From: Nannocystis bainbridge
GTDB taxonomy: Bacteria; Myxococcota_A; Polyangia; Nannocystales; Nannocystaceae
Direction of reading: 5' to 3'
DNA length: 64,000 nt
NCBI RefSeq assembly: GCF_028368995.1
Contig: NZ_JAQNDL010000003.1
Span: 2,528,001 to 2,592,000 of the forward strand
Below, in pieces: positions 25,477-38,656 of this stretch (position 1 is the stretch's first letter; each line of letters begins with the position of its first letter). A program made the translations under genes and the position numbers. The notes below the pieces were generated by a model, which made no database searches, was not told the DNA's origin, and saw nothing but the letters and a program-made list of their open reading frames with translations.

Positions 25477-26727
25477 ATGCTGACCCGCCTCTGTCTCCTC
25501 TCGCTCGGCGCCGCCCTGCTCGCCGCTCCGACCGCCGCTGCCGCCCCCGCCGCTCCCGACGTCCGCCTCTCCGCGCCTGTGGCCGGCGACATCGCCGGCG
25601 ACCGCCTCGCCACTGAGGTCCCCGCCGTGTCCGCCGCCATCGATCGCGCGCCCGTGGCGATGAGCTGGCCGATCGACCAGGCCGCCGACGACCTCCAGAG
25701 CCGACCTGCGGCCCACCGCGCCGAGAGCCGCGTCTGGTGGCGCCGCTTCGAAGTCGCCGCCCTCGCCAAGGGCGTCTCGCTGCCGATCAGCGAGCCCGGC
25801 GCGCTGCTCAAGCTCAGCCCGCAGGACGGCGCCAGCATCGGACTCGACGCCCTCGAGCTCGTCGATGCGCAGGGCCGCGTGCTCGCTGGCGCCGACGCCC
25901 TCAAGCCGCTCGTCGACCCCAGCCACCTGCGCAGCGCCGGCGCCCCCTTCGCGCCCGGCACCGCCATGTTCACCCTCCGCCCCGACCTCGGCGTCGGCGC
26001 CTTCGTGCTGCGCGCCCGCGTGCGCTCCGCCGTGCTCGTGCACGTGCTCGAGCGCGACGCCGGTGCTTACCTGTCCCTCGAGCCAGACGCCGACCTCGCG
26101 CTGGTCGGCGGGCGGCTGCAGGTGCGCGCGCACCTGCGCGACGGCGAGGCTGTCCTCAAGGCCAGCTCGATCAAGGGCGAGCTCATCGCCCCCGACGGCG
26201 AGATCACCCGCTTCGACCTCGCCCGCGCCGCCGACGGCAGCTATCGCGCCGAGCTCGCCGCCCCGCGTCGCGCCGCCGCCCCGGGCGCCCTGCACACGCT
26301 CCAGGTCCACGCCGAGGGCGTCACCGCGCGCGGCGTCCCGGTCCGGCGCACGGTCACCAATGCGGTCTCCATCGCCGCGCCCACCGCCCGCTACACCGGC
26401 GGCGTGACGGTCGAGGACAGCGGCGACGGACGTCTGCGCATTCGCCTCCAGGTCGAAGTCGGCGCCGCCAGCCGCTTCGGCGCCGCCGCGGTCCTCCACG
26501 GCACCAATCGCGGCGGCAAGCTCCAGCCGCTCGGCGTCGGTCAGGCCGCGGATTGGCTCGAGCCCGGCCCCGGTGAGCTCGTGCTCGAATTCGACGAGGC
26601 CACGCTCAAGGCCGCCGGCCTGCGCGGCCCCTACGAGCTCCGCGACCTCCGCCTCGTCGATCAGGGCCGCCTCGCCACCGTCCATCGTCAGGCCCGCGCG
26701 CTGGCGCTCCCGACCGCGCGACGCTGA
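25477..26727 (+). CDS. Secreted DUF4785-like protein (partner of the upstream hydrolase)
   Basis: Signal peptide; ESRxWW, GALLKLSP, PYELRDLRLVDQ motifs recalled for this family. Confidence 0.65.
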   Translation: MLTRLCLLSLGAALLAAPTAAAAPAAPDVRLSAPVAGDIAGDRLATEVPAVSAAIDRAPVAMSWPIDQAADDLQSRPAAHRAESRVWWRRFEVAALAKGVSLPISEPGALLKLSPQDGASIGLDALELVDAQGRVLAGADALKPLVDPSHLRSAGAPFAPGTAMFTLRPDLGVGAFVLRARVRSAVLVHVLERDAGAYLSLEPDADLALVGGRLQVRAHLRDGEAVLKASSIKGELIAPDGEITRFDLARAADGSYRAELAAPRRAAAPGALHTLQVHAEGVTARGVPVRRTVTNAVSIAAPTARYTGGVTVEDSGDGRLRIRLQVEVGAASRFGAAAVLHGTNRGGKLQPLGVGQAADWLEPGPGELVLEFDEATLKAAGLRGPYELRDLRLVDQGRLATVHRQARALALPTARR

Positions 26728-26853
26728 TCTGTCCCAAGGGACATCTCACCGGACCTCCTGTGTGGTCCGGCGCTCGCCGAGTCGCCGGACCGCACGACGA
26801 CTCGGCCGCTCGGACAGTTGCGCCCGTCAGCGCGATCGGTAAGCTGGGCGGCT

Positions 26854-27906
26854 ATGAGTTCAAAATGCCTCGCCCTAACTCACGCCTTAATCGCCGTCCA
26901 GCTCGCCGCCTGTGGTGAGCCCGTGACCCAGGGCGACACGGGCAACATGAGCGACGGCTCGTCGACCACCGACGGCAACCTGACCGCGACGACCGTCCCG
27001 ACCACCGGCCCGACCGGCAGCGGCAGCGAGACCGGCACGAGTGACAGCGAGGGCAGCGGCAGCAACAGCGACACGCAGGCCACCACCTCGACCAGCACCA
27101 CCGACCCGCTCACCGGCACGAGCGCGACCGACAGCACGGCGACCACCACGCCCGGCACGACCACGCTCGACACCACCACGCTCGACACCACGACGACCAC
27201 CGACTCGACGACGTCGACCGCGAGCACCACCGGCGAGACCGCGACCGACACCACCGACGGCACCACGAGCACCACCGATGGCGGCACCACGGGCGACCCG
27301 GTCGGCTGTGGTGATTCGCTGACCGCGGTCATCCGCGACTTCAAGCTCGCGCACCCCGACATGGAGGATTACTGCTGCGGCCAGGTCGACGGCCTCGTCC
27401 AGCCTACCCTCGGCCCCGACAAGAAGCCCGCGTTCAAATCGGTCGGCAACCCCAAGATGCTCACCGACGCGCCGACCTTCGCGCAGTGGTACAACGACGT
27501 CGCCGACGTCAATCATAAGACCCAGATCTCCCTGAACCTGGTCGAGATTCAGCCCGGTCTCTACTCGTACACCAACAACGATTTCTTCCCGGTCGACAAT
27601 ATGTTGTGGGGCAACGAGGGCCAGAACCACAACTTCCACTTCACGACCGAGATCCACACCAAGTTCCAGTACGCCGGCGGCGAGACCTTCACCTTCCAGG
27701 GCGACGACGACGTGTGGGTCTTCATCGACGGTGACCTCGTCATCGACCTGGGCGGCGTCCACGGCGTCGCCAGCGGCACCGTCGACCTCGACGACCTCGG
27801 CCTCCAGCTCGGCGACATCTACAACCTCGACGTCTTCCACGCCGAGCGCCACACCGTGCAGTCGAACTTCCGCATCGACACCACGATCTGCGCCGTCCCG
27901 ATGTGA
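26854..27906 (+). CDS. Fibro-slime (PA14-like) domain lipoprotein
   Basis: LAAC lipobox; [35 protein letters not shown]. Confidence 0.9.
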
Positions 27907-28212
27907 CCGGCCGCTGAATCCGCCCGCGACCTCGCCCTCGATGACCGAGCGCGAGGTCGCGTCGCGACTGCGACCGACCCTCGCGCGGATCAGCGCCGCC
28001 TCTCGAGCACGAGTTGAACTCGAATGAGAGCGATATCGAGGCGCGCGGGGCTGCCCGCCCCTTGCCATCGCCCGCCGAGGGACCATCTTCGCACATGCGT
28101 GGTCCTCGTTCGCGAGTCCGCGGCCCCGGCGTCCGGGCCCAGCGATACGGCTCGATACATTCCGATTCATTAGGATAGGAAATCGCCCCAGCTTCTCCCC
28201 GAGGTTCGCAGG

Positions 28213-28270
28213 CAACCTGTTGAAATCATGCATGTTGGCCACCCGATTGACGGCTGGCCTGTTGCGTGCT
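28213..28270 (+). promoter_or_regulatory. Candidate sigma54 (-24/-12) promoter with upstream IHF-like site
   Basis: TGGCCTGTTGCGTGCT (GG-N10-GC) at 28255-28270. TTTCAACAGGTTG on the minus strand at 28213-28225 is one mismatch from WATCAANNNNTTR. Confidence 0.5.
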
Positions 28271-28284
28271 CAAGTGGGGTCAAG

Positions 28285-28625
28285 GACCTGCGTCATGGCA
28301 CCGATCGCCGTCACCACGAAAGATACGCACCAGCCCGTCGCCAGAGATGCGATGGGTAAGCGTATTCAAACGTGGCGACGTGGTCGCGGGTGCTGAAGCA
28401 GAGCACTGCAACCGTCCGCGACCACGAAGTCGGCGAGCGTCCAACTGGCGGCAAAACGAAGCGCCGCCAGACGCTCAGTTCGCGGCGCGTCGATCGTTCG
28501 TCTCCTCCGCGAGCTTCTTCCAGGTCGCCCTCGCTTCCGGGTTCGGAAGACCGGGGCCACACCTCGGGCCTGCGTCGAAAGACGCTGGCATCGGCCAACT
28601 CGGCCGGATTCGCGTCGTCGACGCG
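28285..28625 (+). ncRNA. Unassigned ~340-nt multi-helix structured RNA or leader preceding the tRNA array
   Basis: At least 10 helices visible by eye, a closing helix GACCTG/CAGGTC and a GAAA tetraloop; no credible ORF. Confidence 0.65.
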
Positions 28626-28626
28626 C

Positions 28627-28644
28627 GTTCTTTTACAACTGAAT
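28627..28644 (+). promoter_or_regulatory. rRNA-operon-type boxA antitermination-like element
   Basis: GTTCTTTTACAACTGAAT resembles rrn boxA (GYTCTTTRAMAA); preceded by a hairpin at 28611-28625. Confidence 0.55.
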
Positions 28645-28665
28645 CGTGGAAGAGGAAGAGAAGAT

Positions 28666-28734
28666 TGCGTCGTCGGGCGGCCCCGACCCTCGGCTCTGAC
28701 CCGAGGCTTGCTGGATCGACACCAGCCGGCGCAA
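28666..28734 (+). tRNA. tRNA-Gln(CUG), compact and atypical
   Basis: TGCGTCG/CGGCGCA; CTCGG-CT-CTG-AC-CCGAG; T-loop ATCGACA. Confidence 0.75.
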
Positions 28735-28776
28735 TTTCAGTCGCAGGCCCGACCTATCGTCGGCCTGCGCAATCGA

Positions 28777-28847
28777 GGTGCCGTGGCCGAGTGACAGGCA
28801 GCGCTCTCATAAGGCGCCATACGCAGGTTCGTTACCTGCCGGCACCA
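28777..28847 (+). tRNA. tRNA-Met(CAU) (Met versus Ile2 not resolved)
   Basis: GGTGCCG/CGGCACC; GCGCT-CT-CAT-AA-GGCGC; T-loop TTCGTTA. Confidence 0.8.
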
Positions 28848-28863
28848 TCCTCGATGACAAATT

Positions 28864-28936
28864 GGGCTGCGAGCGAAGGCGCTGGCGAACCCTTGCAAGG
28901 TTCGTGTTACATCGGGGGCGGTACCCGAGCGGTCCA
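28864..28936 (+). tRNA. tRNA-Ala(UGC), atypical
   Basis: GGGCTGC/GCGGTCC with G3:U70 and A73; CGAACC-CT-TGC-AA-GGTTCG; T-loop GGCGGTA. Confidence 0.75.
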
Positions 28937-29020
28937 TACGCGGCGTAACGGCGCCTGTTACGTCACAGCGAGCGTTCTGCACACACACGGCGGTCGGAGC
29001 CGTGCTCGCACCGACAACCT

Positions 29021-29108
29021 GGAAGCGTCGTCCAATGGTAGGACAGCAGACCGTTAATCTGCCTGGGCAATCGCCCACTCGATGCAAGTTCGATCCTTGC
29101 CGCTTCCG
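29021..29108 (+). tRNA. tRNA-Asn(GUU) with long variable arm
   Basis: GGAAGCG/CGCTTCC, G73; GCAGA-CC-GTT-AA-TCTGC; V-arm TGGGC-AATC-GCCCA. Confidence 0.8.
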
Positions 29109-29113
29109 CTCCT

Positions 29114-29186
29114 GGGCCGATGGGACAGATGGATGTTCAGCGGGTTCTTACCCCGCCTCAGGCTGGATCGTTACCAGCTCGGCTCG
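29114..29186 (+). tRNA. tRNA-Lys(CUU)
   Basis: GGGCCGA/TCGGCTC; GCGGG-TT-CTT-AC-CCCGC; T-loop ATCGTTA. Confidence 0.8.
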
Positions 29187-29220
29187 TATCTCTTATTTAT
29201 TCTATAATCATTAGCAAACT

Positions 29221-29308
29221 GGGCTCCGGCCAGGACGGGAATGGGGCGGACTTTTAATCCGCATGCCGGGCGCTTGCGCTCGACCGAGTTCGACTCTCGG
29301 GGAGCTCT
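29221..29308 (+). tRNA. tRNA-Lys(UUU) with long variable arm
   Basis: GGGCTCC/GGAGCTC; GCGGA-CT-TTT-AA-TCCGC; V-arm CGGGCG-CTTG-CGCTCG. Confidence 0.8.
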
Positions 29309-29355
29309 TATATCTTCAATAACACTCTCGTTCGCGGCTCGAATGGGCCGCTCTT

Positions 29356-29429
29356 GCCGCCGTAGGGGAGTTGGAGTCTCCGCCTCGTTGTCAGCGAGGA
29401 GATCGCGGGTTCGAGTCCCGCCGGTGGCG
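29356..29429 (+). tRNA. tRNA-Asp(GUC) copy 1
   Basis: GCCGCCG/CGGTGGC, G73; CCTCG-TT-GTC-AG-CGAGG; TTCGAGT. Confidence 0.9.
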
Positions 29430-29471
29430 TTGTTCATTGATATCGATATCTCGGCCCGTACGGGCCGATTT

Positions 29472-29545
29472 GCCGCCGTAGGGGAGTTGGAGTCCTCGCC
29501 TCGTTGTCAGCGAGGAGATCGCGGGTTCGAGTCCCGCCGGTGGCG
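29472..29545 (+). tRNA. tRNA-Asp(GUC) copy 2
   Basis: Near-identical to copy 1. Confidence 0.9.
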
Positions 29546-29577
29546 TCGATCCATCTCTGCCAGCAGGGCCATTCTTT

Positions 29578-29651
29578 GCCGTCGTAGGGGAGCTGGAGTC
29601 CCCGCCTCGTTGTCAGCGAGGAGATCGCGGGTTCGAACCCCGCCGGTGGCG
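29578..29651 (+). tRNA. tRNA-Asp(GUC) copy 3
   Basis: Near-identical to copies 1 and 2. Confidence 0.9.
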
Positions 29652-29658
29652 CTCGAGC

Positions 29659-29727
29659 AGGGGCGCGCGTGGTGTGCTACGCGAGGCTTTGAACCTCGTA
29701 AGGAGAGTTCGAACCTCTCCGCCCCTT
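29659..29727 (+). tRNA. tRNA-Gln(UUG), compact
   Basis: AGGGGCG/CGCCCCT; CGAGG-CT-TTG-AA-CCTCG; TTCGAAC. Confidence 0.75.
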
Positions 29728-29800
29728 ACCCCTCGGATTTATCTTCGACTCTGATGAATCTTCCACCCGACGTGATTCGTATCTGAATCATCGAACATTC

Positions 29801-29871
29801 GCCGATGTGGCCTAGTGACTGGGCGTCACCCTTCCAAGGTGAAGACGCGGGTTTGATTCCTGCCATCGGCT
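29801..29871 (+). tRNA. tRNA-Gly(UCC)
   Basis: GCCGATG/CATCGGC, U73; TCACC-CT-TCC-AA-GGTGA; T-loop TTTGATT. Confidence 0.85.
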
Positions 29872-29885
29872 CTCTGTGAACCTCT

Positions 29886-29957
29886 GCAGTTCAGGTCTTG
29901 TCAGTGAGACGCGTGGTTGCCTACCACGAGGGCCCGGTGCGACCCCGGGGAGCTGCT
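29886..29957 (+). tRNA. tRNA-Gly(GCC)
   Basis: GCAGTTC/GAGCTGC, U73; CGTGG-TT-GCC-TA-CCACG; T-loop TGCGACC. Confidence 0.78.
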
Positions 29958-29969
29958 CTACCGTGAATA

Positions 29970-30037
29970 GCCCTTGCTCCAAGGGGGCGCGCTGCTTGGT
30001 ATGTAGCGATGTCCGGGAGCGTTACCCGGCGAGGGCT
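29970..30037 (+). tRNA. tRNA-Thr(GGU), reduced D-arm
   Basis: GCCCTTG/CGAGGGC; GCTGC-TT-GGT-AT-GTAGC; T-loop AGCGTTA. Confidence 0.7.
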
Positions 30038-30047
30038 TTTGAATCTT

Positions 30048-30120
30048 GCCCCCCAAGCATCAATGGTGATGCGCCGCCCTCGTAGCGCGGAATCGCCGGG
30101 TTCGATCCCCGGGAGGGGCT
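30048..30120 (+). tRNA. tRNA-Thr(CGU)
   Basis: GCCCCCC/GAGGGGC; loop CT-CGT-AG; TTCGATC. Confidence 0.8.
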
Positions 30121-30135
30121 ACCTTTTGAAAGGCC

Positions 30136-30207
30136 GGTCCACGAGCTCCCCGGTCGAGCGCCTGCCTGACATGCAGGAGGTACGAGGTTCGATTCCTCGA
30201 TGGACCA
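30136..30207 (+). tRNA. tRNA-Val(GAC)
   Basis: GGTCCAC/ATGGACC, A73; CCTGC-CT-GAC-AT-GCAGG; TTCGATT. Confidence 0.85.
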
Positions 30208-30230
30208 CTCGTTTCCAGTCTGGACAATCT

Positions 30231-30302
30231 GCTCTCGTCGTCTAATAGATAGGGCCCAGGTCTACGGAGCCTGCGATGGTGGTGCGATTCCACCCGAGAG
30301 TA
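30231..30302 (+). tRNA. tRNA-Arg(ACG)
   Basis: GCTCTCG/CGAGAGT; CAGGT-CT-ACG-GA-GCCTG; T-loop TGCGATT. Confidence 0.82.
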
Positions 30303-30322
30303 CTCATTTTGATAAAGACAAT

Positions 30323-30394
30323 GGCCTCGAAGTGTATGAGATTGCACGCGACCGTCCGAAGGTCGTGGACCGGGTGCGACTCCCGGCGGGGCTG
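30323..30394 (+). tRNA. tRNA-Arg(CCG)
   Basis: GGCCTCG/CGGGGCT; CGACC-GT-CCG-AA-GGTCG; T-loop TGCGACT. Confidence 0.8.
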
Positions 30395-30415
30395 CCGGGC
30401 CTGCTTGCGGGTCAC

Positions 30416-30488
30416 GCTCGCGTAGCTCAGCTGGACGAGCATTGGTCTTCTATACCATCGGACGCAGGTTCGAACCCTGCCGCGAGTA
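30416..30488 (+). tRNA. tRNA-Arg(UCU)
   Basis: GCTCGCG/CGCGAGT; TGGT-CT-TCT-AT-ACCA; TTCGAAC. Confidence 0.87.
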
Positions 30489-30514
30489 TCTTCGTTCGTT
30501 TGAATCGTTCATCC

Positions 30515-30586
30515 AGGGGAGAGGTGTTGATGGTGACATGCGGGACTCCAACTCCTGCGAACCGGGTTCGAGTCCCGGCTCCCCTG
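30515..30586 (+). tRNA. tRNA-Trp(CCA)
   Basis: AGGGGAG/CTCCCCT, G73; CGGGA-CT-CCA-AC-TCCTG; TTCGAGT. Confidence 0.87.
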
Positions 30587-30616
30587 TCTTGCATGGGCCC
30601 GGTGCTTCCGGGCCGT

Positions 30617-30682
30617 GGAGCCCGTTCTGGTGGAACGTCGCGGCGCTGCCGCGGTCGTCGGTTCGAGTCCGGCGGGGCTTCT
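30617..30682 (+). tRNA. Minimal tRNA-like RNA with GCU (Ser) triplet, no variable arm; identity uncertain
   Basis: GGAGCCC/GGGCTTC; GTTC-TGGTG-GAAC; TCGCGGC-GCT-GCCGCGG; canonical T arm GTCGG-TTCGAGT-CCGGC. Confidence 0.5.
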
Positions 30683-30683
30683 T

Positions 30684-30754
30684 TGGGCTAAAGCTCGTGA
30701 GAAGAGCGGTGCTCTGTGACAGCACAGGAGAGGGGGCGGAACCCTCTAGCCCAC
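30684..30754 (+). tRNA. tRNA-His(GUG) without encoded G-1
   Basis: TGGGCTA/TAGCCCA, C73; GTGCT-CT-GTG-AC-AGCAC; T-loop GGCGGAA. Confidence 0.78.
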
Positions 30755-30776
30755 CCGCGCGCCAACCGGCGCGCAC

Positions 30777-30848
30777 GCCCGCGTAGCTCAACGGAAGAGC
30801 GGCGTTCTCACACATCGCAGGTCGGGGGCTCGACACCCTCCGCGGGCA
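30777..30848 (+). tRNA. tRNA-Val(CAC)
   Basis: GCCCGCG/CGCGGGC, A73; loop CT-CAC-AC; T-loop CTCGACA. Confidence 0.8.
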
Positions 30849-30870
30849 ACGAACGTCTTCGTAACAACCT

Positions 30871-30941
30871 GGCCCTGTAGTTCAACGGCAGAACCCCGCG
30901 CTCTCTACGCGGAAACCGGAGATCGTCACTCCGCAGGGTCA
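30871..30941 (+). tRNA. tRNA-Glu(CUC)
   Basis: GGCCCTG/CAGGGTC; CCGCG-CT-CTC-TA-CGCGG; T-loop ATCGTCA. Confidence 0.8.
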
Positions 30942-30947
30942 TTCGTA

Positions 30948-31020
30948 CGAGGTGAAGGCTTGATGGTAAGCCGCATGCTCGGGGAGCATGAGATTGTGCG
31001 TTCGACTCGCACCACCTCGA
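30948..31020 (+). tRNA. tRNA-Pro(GGG)
   Basis: CGAGGTG/CACCTCG (C1-G72, A73); CATGC-TC-GGG-GA-GCATG. Confidence 0.83.
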
Positions 31021-31042
31021 TTGTTTTTATTTCAACAATCAT

Positions 31043-31116
31043 CGGAGACGGATCGCGGAGTGCGAGGCGTGTTTCGGGAACACGTAGGCGGGGTGCGACG
31101 CCCCGGTCTCCGACCA
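31043..31116 (+). tRNA. tRNA-Pro(CGG), encoded CCA
   Basis: CGGAGAC/GTCTCCG, A73 then CCA; CGTGT-TT-CGG-GA-ACACG; T-loop TGCGACG. Confidence 0.8.
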
Positions 31117-31162
31117 ACCCCTGCCCCGGGCCGCGGCCAAGCGCTGCGGCCCGGGCTCTCTC

Positions 31163-31233
31163 CCGCGTCCGTGGACGGTGCCACACCTCGTCTGATAAGC
31201 GAGCCCTTCGGAGTTCAACTCTCCGGGCGCGGA
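31163..31233 (+). tRNA. tRNA-Ile(GAU)
   Basis: CCGCGTC/GGCGCGG, A73; CTCGT-CT-GAT-AA-GCGAG; TTCAACT. Confidence 0.78.
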
Positions 31234-31277
31234 TTTCGATTCTCTTCCTCATCCACGATCCGCGTCGTGCCCCGGGC

Positions 31278-31904
31278 TCATGGCCCGGGGCGCGGCGCCA
31301 GGTAGCCGCCGACGAGGGCGATGAGCTCCTCGACGAGGCGGGGGTCGGACAGCCGCTCGGGCTGCTCGAGCACGCACGTGAGGATCACCCACTCGATCGC
31401 GCTGACGATCACGAACGCGGCCAGCTCCGGGTCGACCGGCCGCAGCTCGGCGCTGCGGGCGATCAACGCGTCGCGCAGGCGCTCGCGGCCCGCGTGCACG
31501 TGGGCCCGCAACGCCTCGACGCGACCGACCCGCGGCACGTGCAGCAGCACCGCGCGGAAGAACTCCAGATCGCCGCGGTAGAGGTCGATCGCGGCGCGCA
31601 GGCCGTCGCGCATCTGCTCGGCGAAGGAGCCGCCGTCGGGCGCCGGGACCTCGAACACGCGCTCGATGCCGCGGGTGAACTTGCGGTCGAGCGCCGCCGC
31701 GAGCATCGCCTCCTTGCTCGGGAAGTACTGGTAGAGCGAACCGACGCTGACCCCGGCGACCCGCGCGATCTCGTTGGTCGTCGTCGCCTCGAGGCCGCGC
31801 TCGCCGAGCACGCGGACGGCGGCGTCGAGCAGCGTATCGACCATCTGCTGGCTCCGCGCCTGGCGCGGCTGCTTGCGCGGGGTATGGCGAATCGGCGAAG
31901 TCAT
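31278..31904 (-). CDS. TetR/AcrR family regulator
   Basis: PRQARS; TTNEIARVAGVSVGSLYQYFPSK HTH. Confidence 0.92.
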   Translation of the reverse strand: MTSPIRHTPRKQPRQARSQQMVDTLLDAAVRVLGERGLEATTTNEIARVAGVSVGSLYQYFPSKEAMLAAALDRKFTRGIERVFEVPAPDGGSFAEQMRDGLRAAIDLYRGDLEFFRAVLLHVPRVGRVEALRAHVHAGRERLRDALIARSAELRPVDPELAAFVIVSAIEWVILTCVLEQPERLSDPRLVEELIALVGGYLAPRPGP

Positions 31905-31932
31905 CGGATCGCCCCTCGCACCGGGAGCACGG

Positions 31933-32334
31933 TCATTCGCCCTGCTCCGCGCTCTCGCGCGTCGGCGTCGGCGTCGGCTCGGCGGCGACGGCGGCGGGGG
32001 TCGCCTTGACGATCAGGTAGCGCAGCGGCGCGTCGTCACGCTCGTTGCGCAGCTCGAGCGTCGACCGGAACGGCAGGAACACCACCGAGCCGGGGCCGAA
32101 CGGCAGCGCGTGGCCGTCGACCCGCGCCTCGCCGCAGCCCGTCAGGCCGATCACGATCTCCGAGTCGCGCTGCTGCACGTGGCGCCCCACGTGCCCGCCC
32201 GCCTCGAGCACGCACGAGAGCACCGACGTGAACGGCGGCGCGGGCTGGCCCGCCAGCAGGTCCCAGACGAGCACCTCGCCGTGACCGCCGAACATCGCCT
32301 GTCGCCGCGAGGGTGGGCCGTGACCGATCTGCAT
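31933..32334 (-). CDS. Cupin domain protein
   Basis: VGRHVQ..EIVI..G.G..GPGSVVF..LRN cupin pattern. Confidence 0.75.
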   Translation of the reverse strand: MQIGHGPPSRRQAMFGGHGEVLVWDLLAGQPAPPFTSVLSCVLEAGGHVGRHVQQRDSEIVIGLTGCGEARVDGHALPFGPGSVVFLPFRSTLELRNERDDAPLRYLIVKATPAAVAAEPTPTPTRESAEQGE

Positions 32335-32447
32335 CGGCCCATGATACCACGCCTCGCCCGCCATGACGGACGAATCCGCGCCCCGCCAGCGCCGTCGCCC
32401 TCACGAATGGCGGCACGGAGCGCTGTGTCCACGCATTCGAGCTATGA

Positions 32448-33290
32448 TCATAGCTCGAGCGTGGCCCCGAGACCCAGGAAGCGCGTGCGCTCCTCCAGAC
32501 CCGCGGCTGCGAACGCGCGGTGCAGCTCGCTCTCCGGCTGCTGGAAATGCGCCCAGCCGGTGCGGTGGATCGGCAAGATCTGCCTGGCATCGACCATGCG
32601 GCAGGCCGCGATCGCCTCGGCCGCGTCGAACGTGAAGCGGGCATGGCGGAAGCCCGGCGCGTGCGGGAAGCCGACGGCGCCGCAGTGGACCACCGCGAGG
32701 TCGACGGGGCGCTCGCGCCGGAGCTCGGACAGTTTGGCCGCGAGCGCCGGAAACATCACCGTGTCGCCCGAGATCCACACGCGCGGGCCGTCGTCGACGT
32801 CGATCACGAAGCCCGTGACCTCGTGGACCTGCGGCGCGTAGCTCGGGCCGTGGCGGGCCACGATCGCGGTGATCGTCAGCGGCCCGACGCGTGTGCGAGC
32901 GCCCGGTGCGAGGCCGATCGCGCGCTCGCCGAGGCCGAGGCCGCGGCCGGGCGCGTCATGGTTCGCCGGCGAGCGGGCCAGGCGGCGCGCGCTCGGCACG
33001 GTCGTGATCACCTGCGCCACGCGGGCCTCGTCGGCCACCAGCGCGCGGCCGGAGAGATCGAGGTTGTCGGCGTGATGGTCGTGGCTGAGCAGCACCGCGT
33101 CGAAGCGGCCGAGCGACGCCGGGCTCACCGGCGTCGTGTAGCGCTTCTCACTGGCGAACCACGAGCGCGGCGTGAACCACAGCCCGAAGTCGTAGGTGCT
33201 GCCCATCGCATCGAACACCGGGTCGGTCAGGAGCCGCGTCTCACCGACGCGGATCGCCAGCGTCGCGGTGCCGAGGTACGTCAGCTCCAT
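32448..33290 (-). CDS. MBL-fold metallo-hydrolase (UlaG-like)
   Basis: LTDP, SHDHHADNLD, ISGDT, PIH. Confidence 0.85.
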   Translation of the reverse strand: MELTYLGTATLAIRVGETRLLTDPVFDAMGSTYDFGLWFTPRSWFASEKRYTTPVSPASLGRFDAVLLSHDHHADNLDLSGRALVADEARVAQVITTVPSARRLARSPANHDAPGRGLGLGERAIGLAPGARTRVGPLTITAIVARHGPSYAPQVHEVTGFVIDVDDGPRVWISGDTVMFPALAAKLSELRRERPVDLAVVHCGAVGFPHAPGFRHARFTFDAAEAIAACRMVDARQILPIHRTGWAHFQQPESELHRAFAAAGLEERTRFLGLGATLEL

Positions 33291-33297
33291 GGCCGGC

Positions 33298-34131
33298 TCA
33301 CGACGCCGCGCGGCTCTGCAGGAACGCCAGCAGGTCGGCGTTGATGCGGTCCTTTTGGGTGGTCGGCAGGCCGTGGTCACCGCCCGCGTAGACCTTGAGC
33401 TGCGAGCCCTTGACCAGCTTGTGACCGGCGTGCGCACTGGCGCCGATGGGCACTATTTGGTCGTCGTCTCCGTGGATGAACAGCGTCGGCACGTCGACCT
33501 TCTTCAGGTCCTCGGTGAAGTCGGTCTCGGAGAACGCCTTGATGCAATCGAGCGCGTTCTTGAGGCCGGCCTGCATGCCCTGGCGCCAGAAGCTGTCGCG
33601 CACGCCGTCGGACAGCTTGCCGCCGGGGCGATTGGCGCCGTAGAACGCGGTCGGCAGGTCCTTGAAGAACTGCGAGCGGTCGGCCGTGACGGCGGTGCGG
33701 ATGCCATCGAACGCGTCGAGCGGGATGCCGCCCGGGTTGGCCTCCGTCTTCAGCATCAGCGGCGGCACCGCGCCGACCAGCACCAGCTGGGCGACCCGCG
33801 ACGTGCCGTGGCGACCGACGTAGCGGGTCGCCTCGCCGCCGCCCGTCGAGTGGCCGATGAGCGTCGCCTGCTGCAGATCGAGGTGCTCGATCAGCTGCGC
33901 CAGGTCGTCGGCGTACGTGTCCATCTCATTGCCGTCGTACGGCTGGCTCGAGCGACCGTGACCGCGACGGTCGTGGGCGATGCAGCGATAGCCGCGCGCC
34001 GCGAGGAACACCATCTGGTCCTCCCACGCGTCGGCGGTGAGCGGCCAGCCGTGGCTGAACACCACCGGGCGACCGGCGCCCCAATCCTTGTAGTAGATCT
34101 GCGTTCCATCCTTGACGGTGATCGTGGCCAT
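33298..34131 (-). CDS. cpo: Non-heme chloroperoxidase/arylesterase
   Basis: [40 protein letters not shown]. Confidence 0.92.
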
Positions 34132-35613: not shown

Positions 35614-35649
35614 CAGTACCTCCGGTGTATCGCGAGCATGCCCGAAAGC

Positions 35650-35671
35650 GAAAACCCGACCAAGGTCGGGT
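35650..35671 (-). promoter_or_regulatory. 22-bp palindromic operator upstream of katA
   Basis: ACCCGACC-TT-GGTCGGGT-TTTC; identical copy at 38525-38546. Confidence 0.7.
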
Positions 35672-35777: not shown

Positions 35778-38441
35778 TCACGCCCGCAGCTCCTCGAGCG
35801 CGAACTGAAACGTCGCCCCATGGGTCTCGTTGGCGGTGGCCCACAGCTTGCCGCCGTGGCGCTCGAGGATCGAGCGGCTGATCGAAAGACCCATGCCGAG
35901 GCCGTGCTCCTTCGTGGTGTAGAAGGCGTCGAAAAGGCGCGCGCGGTCGGTGCCGGCGCCCAGGCCGACGCCGACGTCTTCGACCGCGACGTGCACGAAC
36001 GAGCCGCTCTGACGCCGCTCGACGAACGAGTGGATCACCACGCGACGGCGCTCCGCCGGCATGTCCTTGCACGCCTCGCCGGCGTTGAGCAGCAGGTTCA
36101 GCACCACCTGTCGCAGCTGCACCGGATCGCCCTCCACTCGCGGTAATTCGGGCAGCAGCGCCTGATGAATCTCGATGTGGTGCCGCGTCAGCTGCGGCGC
36201 CACCAGCGGGACCACCTCGCGGATCACGTCGTTGAGGTCGCACGCGAGGTGCTGCGGCGACACCCGCGACAGCAGCGAGCGGATCTGCCGCAACACCTGG
36301 GCCGCGCGCCCGCCCTGGTCGATGATCACGGCCAACGACTCGCGCACCTTCGCCAGCGCCGGCGGCTCGGCGGCCGACCAGTTGAGCGCCGCGCTGGCCT
36401 CGGCGATGATCGCCGTCAACGGTTGATTGACCTCGTGGGCGATCGAGGCCGCCAGCTCGCCGAGAGTCGTCACCCGCGAGACGTGGGTCAGGGCCGCCTG
36501 CGCCTGCTGCAGCTCGTCGGCCGCGCGGCGGCTGGCGGTGATGTCGGTCGCAGCGCCGACGAGCTCGAACTCGCCGGCGGCGCTGGTGCGCGAGCGGCCG
36601 AGCACGCGGACCAGCTTGACCGCGCCGTCGTCCATCACCAGGCGATGCTCGTGGTCGAAGTCGCCGCCCTCGCGCAGCGTCCGGCGCACGAGCTCGACGA
36701 CGCGCTCGCTATCGTCGGGGTGGATGCGCTCGAGCAACTGGGCGAGGTCGGGCCGCGGCGTCCCGGGCAGGCCGACGATCTCGCGGATGCCCTCGGAGAA
36801 GTCGCATTCACGGGTGCGGAGGTTGACGCCGAAGCTGCCGGTGCGACTGAGGCGCTCGGCCTCGACGCGATACGCCTCGCTGCGCCGCAACGCTTCCTCT
36901 GACTGGCTGCGCTCGATCGCCAGGCTGGTCACGCGGGCGCACCACTCGAGCAGCTCGAGCTCGCTGGCGGTCGGGCCGCGCGGCTGGGCGGCGTAGATGC
37001 CGAACGTGCCCAGCACCCTGCCGTCGGTCGAGAACATCGGCAGCGACCAGCACGCGCGCAGGCCGTGGGCCAGCGCGTGCTCGCGGAACAGCGCGCCGAG
37101 CGGGTCGGTCTCGATGTCGGTCACCACGACCAGCTCTCTCCGCCAGGCCGCGGTCCCGCACACGAACGCGTTCGGCCCGATCGGCGAGCCGTCGATCGCC
37201 GCGGTGAAGCTGCGCGGCAGGCTCACCGCGGCGATGTGGCGCACGGTGCCCGCTTCGGGATCGAGCAAAAGGATCGACGCTCGCGCGCCCGGGGTGCCTT
37301 CCTCGACCAGACGGACCACGCCTTCGAGGAAGCGCGAGGCCGGTTCGCCGCGCGTCAGCATCTCGAGCAGGCGCTGCTCGCCGGCGGCGCGCGCCTGCGC
37401 TTGCTTCTGCTCCTCGATGTCGCTGCCGAGGCCCCACCACTTCGCCACCTCGCCGCGCTCGTCGAGCAGCGGCACCGCGTGGATCTGGAACCACCGGTAG
37501 CGACCGCACGCGCGCTTCAGACGGGCCTCGATGCGCCCCTCCTTGCCCGACGCGAGCAGCCGCGCCCACGCTTCGATCACCGCGGCGCGGTCGCTCGGAT
37601 GGACCAGGTCGGTGGTCACCCAGGCCCAACCTCGCAGCTCCGGCTCCGCCTTGCCCGCGTACGTCTGCCAGCCCCGGCTCAGGAACTCGAGCGAGCCGTC
37701 GGCGCGGGCGCTCCACACCAGGCCGGGCACCGCGTCGATGACCGCGAGCAGCTCGTCGACCGCACCGCCGCCGTCGCGCAGATCGAGCAACGTCGGCGCG
37801 ATGTGACCGTGCGTTGCCCAGGCAACCGCGCATCGCTGAAGATCGGCGAGGACCTGGCTAGCCGTCGCGTACCCGACTTCGTCGCGCTCGACGAGCCGCG
37901 CCACGATCTGCTCGAGCGCCCGCGGCGACCCGTCCGTCGCGCCGACCAACATCTCGTGCAGCACCGCGCCGCAGCCGCGGAGGTCGCAGCGCACGTCGAC
38001 GGAGCGATCGGTCACGACCGCGCCGAGCCGCGCCGCCGCGCCGAAGCCGGTCAGCCAGCACTCGCCGGTGGCCGGCTTCGTCAGCACGTTGCTCGCGCGG
38101 AAGTCGTTGTGCGCCAGGCCTCGCGCGTGCAGCCGCACCAGCGCGGTGACCAGCCCGATCGCCACGCGCAGGAACGCCGCGATGTCCCACGGCGCGCCGA
38201 GCAGCTCGCCGAGCGGCCGGCCGCCGGGATCGGCGAATGTCAGCGACACGCTGTCGCCGTCCCGCTCGATCGTCAGCGGGCGCAACGCCGCCGATGGATC
38301 GAGCTCGTCGCGCAGCGACCACTCGTGCTCGAGCATGGCGACGCCCCACGCGTCGCTGCAGGTCCGCACCAGCCGCGACGCGCTCCCGCCCGCTCCATCG
38401 ACGCGAATGTCACTCACGGGCGCGTGCAGAGTGAGACTCAT
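35778..38441 (-). CDS. PAS-GAF-PAS sensor histidine kinase with degenerate N-terminal Ser/Thr-kinase-like domain
   Basis: HEVNQPL H-box; NLLLNA; FYTTK; GLGMGLSI; PAS motif VHP.D; kinase-like HNDFRASNV and LTGFG. Confidence 0.87.
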   Translation of the reverse strand: MSLTLHAPVSDIRVDGAGGSASRLVRTCSDAWGVAMLEHEWSLRDELDPSAALRPLTIERDGDSVSLTFADPGGRPLGELLGAPWDIAAFLRVAIGLVTALVRLHARGLAHNDFRASNVLTKPATGECWLTGFGAAARLGAVVTDRSVDVRCDLRGCGAVLHEMLVGATDGSPRALEQIVARLVERDEVGYATASQVLADLQRCAVAWATHGHIAPTLLDLRDGGGAVDELLAVIDAVPGLVWSARADGSLEFLSRGWQTYAGKAEPELRGWAWVTTDLVHPSDRAAVIEAWARLLASGKEGRIEARLKRACGRYRWFQIHAVPLLDERGEVAKWWGLGSDIEEQKQAQARAAGEQRLLEMLTRGEPASRFLEGVVRLVEEGTPGARASILLLDPEAGTVRHIAAVSLPRSFTAAIDGSPIGPNAFVCGTAAWRRELVVVTDIETDPLGALFREHALAHGLRACWSLPMFSTDGRVLGTFGIYAAQPRGPTASELELLEWCARVTSLAIERSQSEEALRRSEAYRVEAERLSRTGSFGVNLRTRECDFSEGIREIVGLPGTPRPDLAQLLERIHPDDSERVVELVRRTLREGGDFDHEHRLVMDDGAVKLVRVLGRSRTSAAGEFELVGAATDITASRRAADELQQAQAALTHVSRVTTLGELAASIAHEVNQPLTAIIAEASAALNWSAAEPPALAKVRESLAVIIDQGGRAAQVLRQIRSLLSRVSPQHLACDLNDVIREVVPLVAPQLTRHHIEIHQALLPELPRVEGDPVQLRQVVLNLLLNAGEACKDMPAERRRVVIHSFVERRQSGSFVHVAVEDVGVGLGAGTDRARLFDAFYTTKEHGLGMGLSISRSILERHGGKLWATANETHGATFQFALEELRA

Positions 38442-38524
38442 GGACCGCCCGACTATAACCGCTTCTGCTTTTCGCACGAACCGGCTTTCGGAGGTCCCCA
38501 GCCCGCACGCGGACGTTCCGCCCG

Positions 38525-38546
38525 ACCCGACCTTGGTCGGGTTTTC
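38525..38546 (+). promoter_or_regulatory. Second copy of the 22-bp operator, upstream of the lysophospholipase
   Basis: Exact reverse complement of 35650-35671. Confidence 0.7.
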
Positions 38547-38656
38547 TGCGCTTGCGATCGCGGCGATACGGATACGACTCCCACGCCTGCGCGGTCGGTC
38601 TCTCACGCTGAACCTCGCGCTGCGTGAGTCCGCCTCCAATCGGAAGGAACGTCGAG

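Follow-up and report, generated by a model that had tools for sequence, protein, structure and literature searches.

A supernumerary array of tRNA genes in Nannocystis bainbridge, a soil myxobacterium, is enclosed by two complementary 20-nt segments, kept at the array ends in all six array-bearing genomes of the genus, and the upstream segment nearly copies one strand of the helix predicted to close the host's own pre-16S rRNA. On balance, these arms probably form an rRNA-type leader-trailer helix of a tRNA polycistron, most likely cut by RNase III. Coordinates below refer to the window, i.e. the whole stretch of 64,000 nucleotides that was analysed.

The tRNA array and its two arms

28643-28662, + strand: left (5', purine-rich) arm
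28665-31233, + strand: supernumerary L-array of 23 tRNA or tRNA-like genes (ARAGORN)
31240-31259, + strand: right (3', pyrimidine-rich) arm, at which the conserved block stops

With 23 ARAGORN calls on one strand within 2569 nt, the array falls under the L-array definition as given in PMC4758250 (at least 20 tRNA genes at a density of at least 2 per kb). The Rfam gathering score for tRNA is reached by 13 of the 23 calls, and no rRNA was found by Rfam in 26000-34000. The array is supernumerary to the housekeeping tRNA set, as all 21 of its distinct anticodons recur outside it (102 tRNA calls in the whole genome), and its GC content is 0.60-0.64, compared with about 0.70 around it. It is also patchily distributed, being present in 6 of the 73 genomes of the family, all six in the genus Nannocystis, with 23, 19, 21, 21, 21 and 24 tRNA calls and spans of 2408-4007 nt (in one of them, G001, it is interrupted by an IS630-like DDE_3 insertion). 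These arrays occupy at least two different contexts on the chromosome: the DNA on either side of the G003 array maps to C2:733860-740853 of the present genome (G000), 1.8 Mb from its own array, and the left flank in G000 is unlike those of its relatives. No homologous array or DNA similarity was detected in phage or plasmid collections.

The two arms lie 2577 nt apart and are complementary at 19 of 20 positions (95%), the sole mismatch in this genome being an A.A at arm position 9. This pairing around the array had been proposed in a first-pass annotation and is upheld, as is the 6-nt gap between the last tRNA and the right arm, while the left arm ends 2 nt before the first tRNA call rather than the 3 nt then given. 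Both arms are found in all six array-bearing genomes, always adjoining the first and last tRNAs, at 2-3 nt before the former (Gln-CUG-like) and 3-6 nt after the latter (Ile-GAU-like). The mere existence of a 20-nt inverted pair is only mildly unusual, the window containing two such pairs (at most one mismatch, 200-5000 nt apart) and 40 dinucleotide-preserving shuffles giving a mean of 0.3 (range 0-2). The energy of the arm duplex is ordinary for this GC-rich genome (a value of -34.8 kcal/mol or lower is found for 609 of 1500 randomly chosen pairs of 45-nt windows spaced 2.6 kb), and the arm core is rare, with five matches at up to one mismatch in 11 Mb, two of them the arms themselves (reversed control: two). 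It is the placement at both array ends, together with the retention of both arms in each of the six genomes, that excludes a chance origin.

Conservation of the arms is close to that of the tRNA genes. Invariant columns account for 18/20 positions of the left arm and 15/20 of the right arm (the latter read by eye from a MAFFT alignment in which G003 is mis-gapped), compared with 259/291 in the tRNAs, 14/110 (13%) in the 3' spacers and 1/30 (3%) in the flank beyond the right arm. With 15 near-invariant positions in each arm, the sequence itself matters, beyond pairing alone. Between 18 and 20 of the 20 positions are paired in each genome. One position shows a double compensatory change (position 6, G-C to C-G in G003), U-A has become U.G on the tRNA-sense strand at positions 2 and 5 (five genome-positions), and three changes break a pair within the 18-bp core (position 5 in G001, position 9 in G000, position 20 in G003). 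Covariation support for the helix is thin, coming from six sequences of which two are near-identical and in which most arm positions are invariant. The comparison of homologous arrays advised in the first-pass annotation has given a mixed answer on compensatory changes, with one double swap and three core breaks, and a clear one on joint conservation, the loss of which was to have counted against the stem: both arms are retained throughout. Full-length minimum free energy folds, generally unreliable for long-range pairs, join the arms in all six genomes (19, 15, 20, 20, 18 and 18 of the 20 left-arm bases paired); in G000, 16 of 19 arm pairs have a probability of at least 0.97, and in G005 and G007 duplexfold gives a helix of about 23 contiguous pairs by our own count.

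Likeness to the pre-16S helix and a model for maturation

28637-28658, + strand: module AACTGAATCGTGGAAGAGGAAG, shared with the predicted pre-16S leader-trailer helix (its 5' strand)

Pre-16S and pre-23S rRNAs are closed by helices of this kind. A leader-trailer helix is predicted for each of the three rrn operons of this genome, and its 5' strand is identical to the array module at 19 of 22 positions. At up to four mismatches, the module occurs in the 11 Mb only as itself and in the three rrn leaders, and its controls (the reversed pattern and 20 shuffled ones) returned no match at up to three mismatches; the second-best rrn match (24/31) lies in the 16S-23S spacer, adjoining the predicted 23S stem. 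The rrn motif is genus-specific, with three copies in each of the six array genomes and no match in any of 30 further genera that were sampled. In a second control, based on local alignments to random 601-nt genome windows, the left-arm score of 29 ranks only at the 95th percentile, and the right arm is not significantly similar to rrn, its score being attained in 286 of 300 shuffles. This link between the left arm of the tRNA array and the pre-16S helix strand emerged in the present analysis. Because its 5' strand is so nearly that of the host helix, the array seems to make use of the recognition features by which rRNA is matured, and the tRNA block is probably matured like ribosomal RNA. The earlier proposal of an RNA stem of the rRNA-precursor type is strengthened accordingly by both the conserved pairing that brackets the whole array and the likeness of the left module to the pre-16S strand. 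Leader-trailer helices are cleaved by RNase III in E. coli, where that of pre-16S rRNA is described as functional only if longer than 17 bp (PMC10250234), a length that the array helix also exceeds with its 18-20 paired positions per genome. An RNase III gene is present in the genome (72.4 bits).

The model that we favour would start from one long precursor RNA comprising a structured leader of about 380 nt, the purine-rich left arm, 19-24 tRNAs and the pyrimidine-rich right arm. Once transcribed, the 3' arm would pair with the 5' arm, forming a helix of 18-23 bp that closes the whole array, and a cut in this helix, most likely by RNase III, would sever the tRNA block both from its regulatory leader and from any RNA read through into the convergent gene that follows, leaving individual tRNAs to be released by RNase P and 3' trimming enzymes. 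We infer here a single transcript over both arms, a helix that forms in vivo and its cleavage by RNase III. As a counterpoint, tRNAs are not known to need such a helix for their maturation, and RNase P, if it cleaved early, could separate the left arm from the rest before the right arm has been transcribed. Action of RNase III on a polycistronic tRNA precursor would have a precedent in the tRNA cluster of phage T4, in whose maturation Pragai and Apirion reportedly described an RNase III step in 1981, said to be a local cut near the 5' end and not one in a helix enclosing the cluster.

Like the proposed array helix, rRNA leader-trailer helices are made of complementary segments lying kilobases apart in one precursor and enclosing the mature RNA (PMC10250234; PMC11404451), and the host pre-16S helix has the same polarity, its 5' strand being rich in purines and its 3' strand in pyrimidines. 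The array helix differs in that it begins 2-6 nt from the mature ends and encloses about 20 tRNAs instead of rRNA. Since only tRNAs are enclosed, it is a variant rather than a strict member of a class that the available text of PMC10250234 and PMC11404451 describes for rRNAs only. The array itself is comparable to the L-array of Anabaena PCC 7120, which likewise comprises 20 or more tRNA genes on one strand at a density above 2 per kb, is supernumerary to a full housekeeping set, includes some non-canonical tRNAs, and is of atypical composition and patchy distribution (PMC8421152; PMC4758250). For the Nannocystis array we propose a regulated promoter region of its own that contains direct repeats, such as was shown for the Anabaena array. 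The L-array of Anabaena pCC7120delta, the only other one analysed, has no comparable bracket, its best pair (15/20) lying about 400 nt away from one end of the array. In PMC8421152 the main text mentions neither RNase III nor 'inverted', and PMC4758250 mentions neither 'RNase' nor 'inverted repeat'.

Leader, putative promoter and borders of the conserved unit

28143-28179, + strand: GATAC-type pentamers repeated directly about every 10 nt, in conserved blocks of the six-genome alignment; possible activator-binding site
28255-28274, + strand: sigma-54-like promoter element TGGCC-N7-TGCT, with GG-N10-GC spacing
28281-28642, + strand: conserved structured leader with a presumed 5' end (RNAalifold, six sequences)
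28295-28396, + strand: small ORF of 33 codons within the leader, with AAGGA 8 nt before its ATG
28611-28637, + strand: GC hairpin (28611-28625) then T-rich GTTCTTTTACA (28627-28637); terminator-like, and boxB/boxA-like or attenuator-like
31262-31298, no strand assigned: strong GC hairpin (inverted pair and fold) at the 3' end of the convergent TetR gene, in this genome only, with no T-run after it
31278-31904, - strand: inserted TetR-family gene (Pfam TetR_N, 2.1e-19) that separates the right arm from the syntenic cupin gene, outside the conserved unit

A putative promoter lies about 360 nt 5' of the left arm: its -24-like and -12-like blocks are invariant in the six genomes, the spacer between them varies, and no sigma-70-type site was found in 27900-31500. 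The triple GATAC repeat pattern upstream occurs once in the 11-Mb genome. In the leader, RNAalifold predicts 134 pairs, 12 of them with pair-keeping changes on both sides; two compensatory pairs belong to the hairpin at 28435-28476 and one to that at 28611-28625, which stays paired in G003 through a U-A to C-G change. The leader matches no Rfam family, even at E<=5. Its small ORF is open in all six genomes, with 33-34 codons and an unchanged start context, and coding is unproven since the nucleotide sequence is itself near-invariant. GTTCTTTTACA agrees with 10 of the 11 positions of the BoxA consensus GYTCTTTAANA, which is given as a gamma-proteobacterial one in PMC5725501. This reading is weak because matches at up to one mismatch number 169 genome-wide, with none at the rrn operons. 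The left arm may resemble leader-trailer helices also in being preceded by a hairpin and a T-rich, doubtfully BoxA-like motif, as in the boxB/boxA layout of rRNA leaders, if the two elements do not form an attenuator instead.

No intrinsic terminator with a T-run is present 3' of the right arm in any of the six genomes. The TetR gene is missing here in G001, G005, G007 and G010, in which homology to the window from 31955 onward resumes 10-52 nt past the arm; as this homology starts at the convergent cupin gene, scant room is left for a separate terminator in these four relatives. On the other side, homology among the genomes, including the relocated G003 copy, extends leftward for 390-510 nt beyond the left arm. 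No target-site duplication was seen in the flanks, as read from the window and the six-genome comparison, and the nine neighbouring ORFs scanned contain no recombinase or transposase domain, three observations that together disfavour a mobile cassette or an inversion. The orientation of the array relative to the leader is identical in all six genomes, with no inverted copies.

Other readings of the arms

Could the helix form and remain uncut, acting as a clamp against exonucleases at both ends, as a folding insulator (from the leader or from antisense read-through), or as a switch that hides the left arm until the RNA is full-length? This is a serious alternative that we nevertheless consider unlikely. 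It draws on the same structural evidence as the leader-trailer reading; the lack of a T-run terminator beyond the right arm means that a terminal helix could replace a protective 3' hairpin, and the consensus fold of the leader alone pairs parts of the left arm locally (UUUUAC with GUGGAA, and CC..UC with GAGG). However, the match to the rrn helix strand, a substrate of RNase III in E. coli (PMC10250234), points to shared processing. The switch, moreover, had been specified in the first-pass annotation as a pairing of the left arm with CTTCTTCCA, which is indeed located at 28514-28522 and could form nine pairs (one G.U) with 28647-28655, but this motif is intact in only four of the six genomes (CTGCTTCAA in G001, CTGCTTCCA in G003), and its CTTC pairs with GAAG at 28426-28429 in the leader-only consensus fold, leaving a folding switch through CTTCTTCCA unsupported.

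The repeat might also act in the DNA, as two opposed sites bound by a single protein, for looping or as a boundary or roadblock, or as crossover sites for an inversion flipping the array relative to its promoter. The inverted repeat is just as symmetric in DNA, each arm contains a tandem GAAGAG hexamer, and both arms are near-invariant in sequence, not just complementary. We regard this as improbable, given the single orientation of the array and the absence of recombinase domains from the nine neighbouring ORFs scanned, and given that changes compatible with U.G pairing would be plain mismatches between two DNA sites and that the left arm resembles an rrn element operating at the RNA level. 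That the helix is an evolutionary relic, the unit having been built from a piece of an rrn operon whose complementarity is now without function, is very improbable: ancestry alone could account for the 19/22 match to the leader strand, but both arms have been kept at the array ends in six species with spacers down to 13% invariant columns, and one paired position has changed on both sides.

Terminal inverted repeats of a non-autonomous mobile cassette carrying the array, which the first-pass annotation had rightly ranked lower, deserve almost no credence: as in IS or MITE ends and invertible switches, a 20-bp inverted repeat flanks a discrete segment (2.4-4 kb), the unit occurs in different chromosomal contexts, with a left flank in G000 unlike that of its relatives, and conservation halts precisely at the right arm's outer edge, but homology extends so far past the left arm, even in the relocated copy, that the arms do not delimit the moved unit, no direct-repeat duplication was seen beside them, the core motif is not scattered across the genome, and no homologous array was found in phage or plasmid collections. 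The search for an empty site that the annotation had suggested yielded no clean one, because the G000 counterpart of the G003 insertion site is occupied by another gene.

Finally, the leader-trailer reading may be extended to an exchange with the rRNA operons. The left arm and the pre-16S leader strand have an exact 11-nt core in common, and the right arm is a perfect complement of this core, so that arm fragments freed by processing could base-pair in trans with pre-16S rRNA, in its leader or its trailer, or alternatively compete with it for RNase III and assembly factors. The array would then be a stress-inducible unit that both imitates the rRNA operon and communicates with it, a proposal that we rate as quite improbable. 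If true, switching on the spare tRNA set would simultaneously slow or re-tune the biogenesis of 30S subunits, and tRNA supply would be coupled to ribosome production in a new way.

Complementary arms at the ends of the array

The window corresponds to C2:2528001-2592000 of the host, a myxobacterium of the genus Nannocystis. The host genome (11.05 Mb, 5 contigs) contains 102 tRNA calls, and its array comprises 23 of the calls made by ARAGORN, all on the plus strand and spanning 28665-31233. Each of its 21 distinct anticodons is also present outside it, and the array is therefore supernumerary; it qualifies as an L-array (tRNA array unit) as defined in PMC4758250 and PMC8421152. Its GC content (0.60-0.64) is lower than that of the surroundings (~0.70). 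The Rfam tRNA cut-off is passed by 13 of the 23 calls, while the other 10, among them the Gln-CUG call that opens the array and the Ile-GAU call that closes it, score below it, yet are strongly conserved in the genus. Two segments bracket the array:

28643-28662, plus strand: left arm, inverted-repeat arm of 20 nt, ending 2 nt before the first tRNA call
31240-31259, plus strand: right arm, inverted-repeat arm of 20 nt, starting 6 nt past the final tRNA call

The arms reported at these positions by the first-pass annotation were recovered with identical coordinates and a complementarity of 19/20. Its distance to the last tRNA also holds, whereas the 3 nt given before the first tRNA have to be corrected to 2.

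The window holds 2 inverted pairs of such quality at a distance of 200-5000 nt, for a mean of 0.3 in 40 dinucleotide-preserving shuffles. The duplex energy of the arms is unremarkable in this ~70% GC genome, being reached by 609 of 1500 random window pairs, and was dropped as evidence for a helix after this control. As neither repeat quality nor duplex energy is very rare, what speaks for a real feature is the placement of the arms together with the comparative data. Besides the arms, the window has a single 20-nt inverted pair (35649-35668 and 38528-38547); it corresponds to two similar hairpins (ACCCGACC..GGTCGGGT, with T/A runs) on either side of a 953-codon ORF (35778-38639), and these hairpins resemble twin bidirectional terminators.

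Homologous arrays occur in five further Nannocystis genomes (G001, G003, G005, G007 and G010), the six arrays having 19-24 tRNA calls over 2408-4007 nt. None was found in five fragmentary MAGs of the genus or in 62 genomes of other genera of the family (family and order searches covering the same 73 genomes), and a pattern scan of genome contigs located the array outside the host only in the five known relatives. Phage sequences gave single-tRNA matches only, and the plasmid collection none. The first of two metagenome scans returned no match, and the second only four copies (L039-L042) of an unrelated coding contig devoid of tRNAs, which have in common with the leader ~27 nt near the start of its small ORF, exact but with dissimilar flanks.

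The same two arms are present in all six genomes, the left one 2-3 nt ahead of the first gene, which is Gln(CUG)-like, and the right one 3-6 nt past the last, which is Ile(GAU)-like.

Invariant alignment columns across the six genomes (MAFFT)
Left arm: 18/20
Right arm: 15/20 (counted by eye, G003 being mis-gapped by MAFFT)
tRNA columns: 259/291
3' spacers: 14/110
Flank after the right arm: 1/30

Depending on the genome, 18-20 of the 20 arm positions are paired. Position 6 shows a G-C to C-G swap in G003, five U.G-compatible changes fall at positions 2 and 5, and three changes inside the 18-bp core break a pair. The alignment thus suggests a covariation that is real but thin, the joint conservation of both arms being the main signal. 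Contigs of 150-500 nt from four soil DNA runs revealed neither a strand-change or skipping joint at the arms nor informative arm variation, and are evidence neither way. In minimum free energy folds of the inferred full-length RNAs, the arms are paired in 6/6 genomes, with a probability of at least 0.97 for 16 of the 19 arm pairs in the host, and the helix meets no competitor elsewhere in the predicted transcript, long-range predictions of this kind being fallible.

Several other features lie within the arrays. A 173-nt stretch (28848-29020) has no tRNA call, belongs to well conserved left-end spacer columns (83/155 invariant), and may be an undetected RNA. The spacer between tRNA-Pro(CGG) and tRNA-Ile harbors a GC hairpin (31118-31151) whose pairing is kept despite changes in G003, as judged by eye. 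In N. punicea (G001), an IS630-like transposase gene (L024:4419-5525; DDE_3 1.5e-20, plus HTH domains) is located between tRNA-Gln(UUG) and tRNA-Gly(GCC), leaving the arms unaffected.

Relation to the pre-16S helix and possible processing

Leader-trailer helices are usually viewed as belonging to rRNA precursors. The three 16S genes of the host were located and their flanks folded; in the leader-trailer helix predicted in this way, AACTGGATAGAGGAAGAGGAAGCCGAG is part of the 5' strand. A module of the array that overlaps the left arm, AACTGAATCGTGGAAGAGGAAG (28637-28658), matches this strand at 19 of 22 positions. This score is reached by 1/300 shuffled queries, and lies only at the 95th percentile of random genome windows. 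Genome-wide, matches at ≤4 mismatches are limited to the module itself and the three rrn leaders, and neither the reversed pattern nor 20 shuffled patterns matched the genome at ≤3 mismatches. The second-best rrn match (24/31) is in the 16S-23S spacer, adjoining the predicted 23S stem, and the rrn motif is genus-specific. The right arm alone has no significant similarity to rrn. Both the array helix and the pre-16S helix combine a purine-rich 5' strand with a pyrimidine-rich 3' strand.

In E. coli, according to passages of PMC10250234, leader-trailer helices enclose each rRNA, are preceded by boxB-boxA-boxC elements and are cut by RNase III, with >17 bp needed for 30S formation. The Nannocystis array has the same arrangement, with the host's own helix strand borrowed, but its helix encloses tRNAs instead of rRNA. 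Given this common layout, the borrowed strand and the presence of an RNase III gene in the host genome, the arms most likely represent, by analogy, a leader-trailer helix of the rRNA type carried by a tRNA polycistron, and a putative RNase III site. We infer that the array is transcribed, that the helix forms and that it is cleaved; a cut at the arms would detach the tRNA block from the regulatory leader and also separate it from any read-through into the convergent gene.

The first-pass annotation had proposed either a processing stem or a folding switch, in which the left arm pairs with the upstream CTTCTTCCA (28514-28522). Conserved arms, predicted pairing and the match to the rrn strand all favor the former. 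The sequence does allow the pairing required by the switch, but only 4/6 genomes have an intact motif, and the consensus fold of the leader engages it elsewhere; the latter is not supported.

The best-studied L-array, that of Anabaena, is without a bracketing helix, unlike the Nannocystis array. The terms "RNase III" and "inverted" are absent from the main text of PMC8421152, as are "RNase" and "inverted repeat" from PMC4758250 (supplements may list myxobacterial arrays), and the leader-trailer survey PMC11404451, in the sections available, covers rRNAs only, in contrast to the tRNA-enclosing helix considered here. None of the papers returned by the literature searches describes a helix bracketing a tRNA array.

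If the leader-trailer reading is correct, the processing logic of rRNA would be reusable for other stable-RNA polycistrons, and such an array would provide a natural design to release multi-tRNA cassettes from a long transcript. Long tRNA arrays are, to our knowledge, an unexplained class of spare tRNA sets that has spread horizontally, and there has been little study of how they mature and are controlled; the arms, RNase III and a leader with a sigma-54-like promoter would then offer a handle on the conditions and the mode of their expression. N. exedens DSM 71 and N. pusilla Na p29, for example, can be cultivated and would allow a direct test of the system.

The conserved leader

The ~500 nt that precede the left arm are conserved in the six genomes, with the following elements:

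28143-28179: GATAC-type direct repeats with ~10-nt spacing, conserved in 6/6 genomes
28255-28274: sigma-54-like TGGCC-N7-TGCT, ~80 nt after the repeats, read from the alignment; -24/-12 blocks invariant in 6/6, spacer variable
28295-28396: small ORF (33-34 codons), its ATG preceded by an AAGGA ribosome-binding motif, open in 6/6, with an in-frame length difference in G003
28281-28642: structured leader with several conserved hairpins; 134 predicted pairs, 12 with double-sided compensatory changes
Immediately before the left arm: GC hairpin, then a T-rich motif

A search of 27900-31500 gave no sigma-70-type site. Judging from their sequences, the repeats and the sigma-54-like element could constitute a candidate enhancer-dependent promoter of the array, and if so, the left arm would lie ~360 nt inside the transcript. 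The small ORF could encode a leader peptide, or could merely be part of the structured leader RNA. The latter has no match among Rfam families and is, on the basis of its modelled fold, a candidate new cis-regulatory RNA. The T-rich motif agrees at 10/11 positions with the BoxA consensus GYTCTTTAANA (as printed in a passage of PMC5725501), but is only a lead, because there are 169 such matches genome-wide and none at the host rrn operons. The host genome also encodes four RtcB-family ligase paralogues (C1:3113129, C2:2478898, C1:3404977 and C1:2905312), one of them ~76 kb upstream of the array; a genome-wide search for the upstream repeat motif located it at the array only, and gave no link to these paralogues that would support a regulon shared by the array and rtcB.

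Limits of the conserved unit

The left limit of homology falls within 28129-28255, at 390-510 nt before the left arm begins, and the flanks diverge beyond. On the right, a cupin, an MBL-fold protein and a catalase gene, all on the minus strand, are common to the host, G001, G005, G007 and G010, and in the four relatives the homology containing the convergent gene restarts just 10-52 nt past the right arm. The G003 array is at another locus, its flanks mapping to host positions C2:733860-740853, 1.8 Mb from the host array; this host locus carries a different gene, and no clean empty site was found for the G003 insertion. The left limit and the G003 relocation together indicate that the conserved, relocated unit consists of leader, array and right arm, and not of the inter-arm segment.

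Terminal inverted repeats of a mobile cassette, already considered less likely in the first-pass annotation, are accordingly disfavored: homology passes the left arm, no target duplication was seen beside the arms, and no recombinase or transposase domain was detected in the 9 neighboring ORFs scanned. An inversion switch is likewise disfavored in view of the same lack of recombinase domains in these ORFs and of the single orientation of the array in 6/6 copies. A stretch of ~700 bp with a TetR-family gene (31258-31954), present in the host genome only, is inserted precisely where the right arm ends on its outer side.
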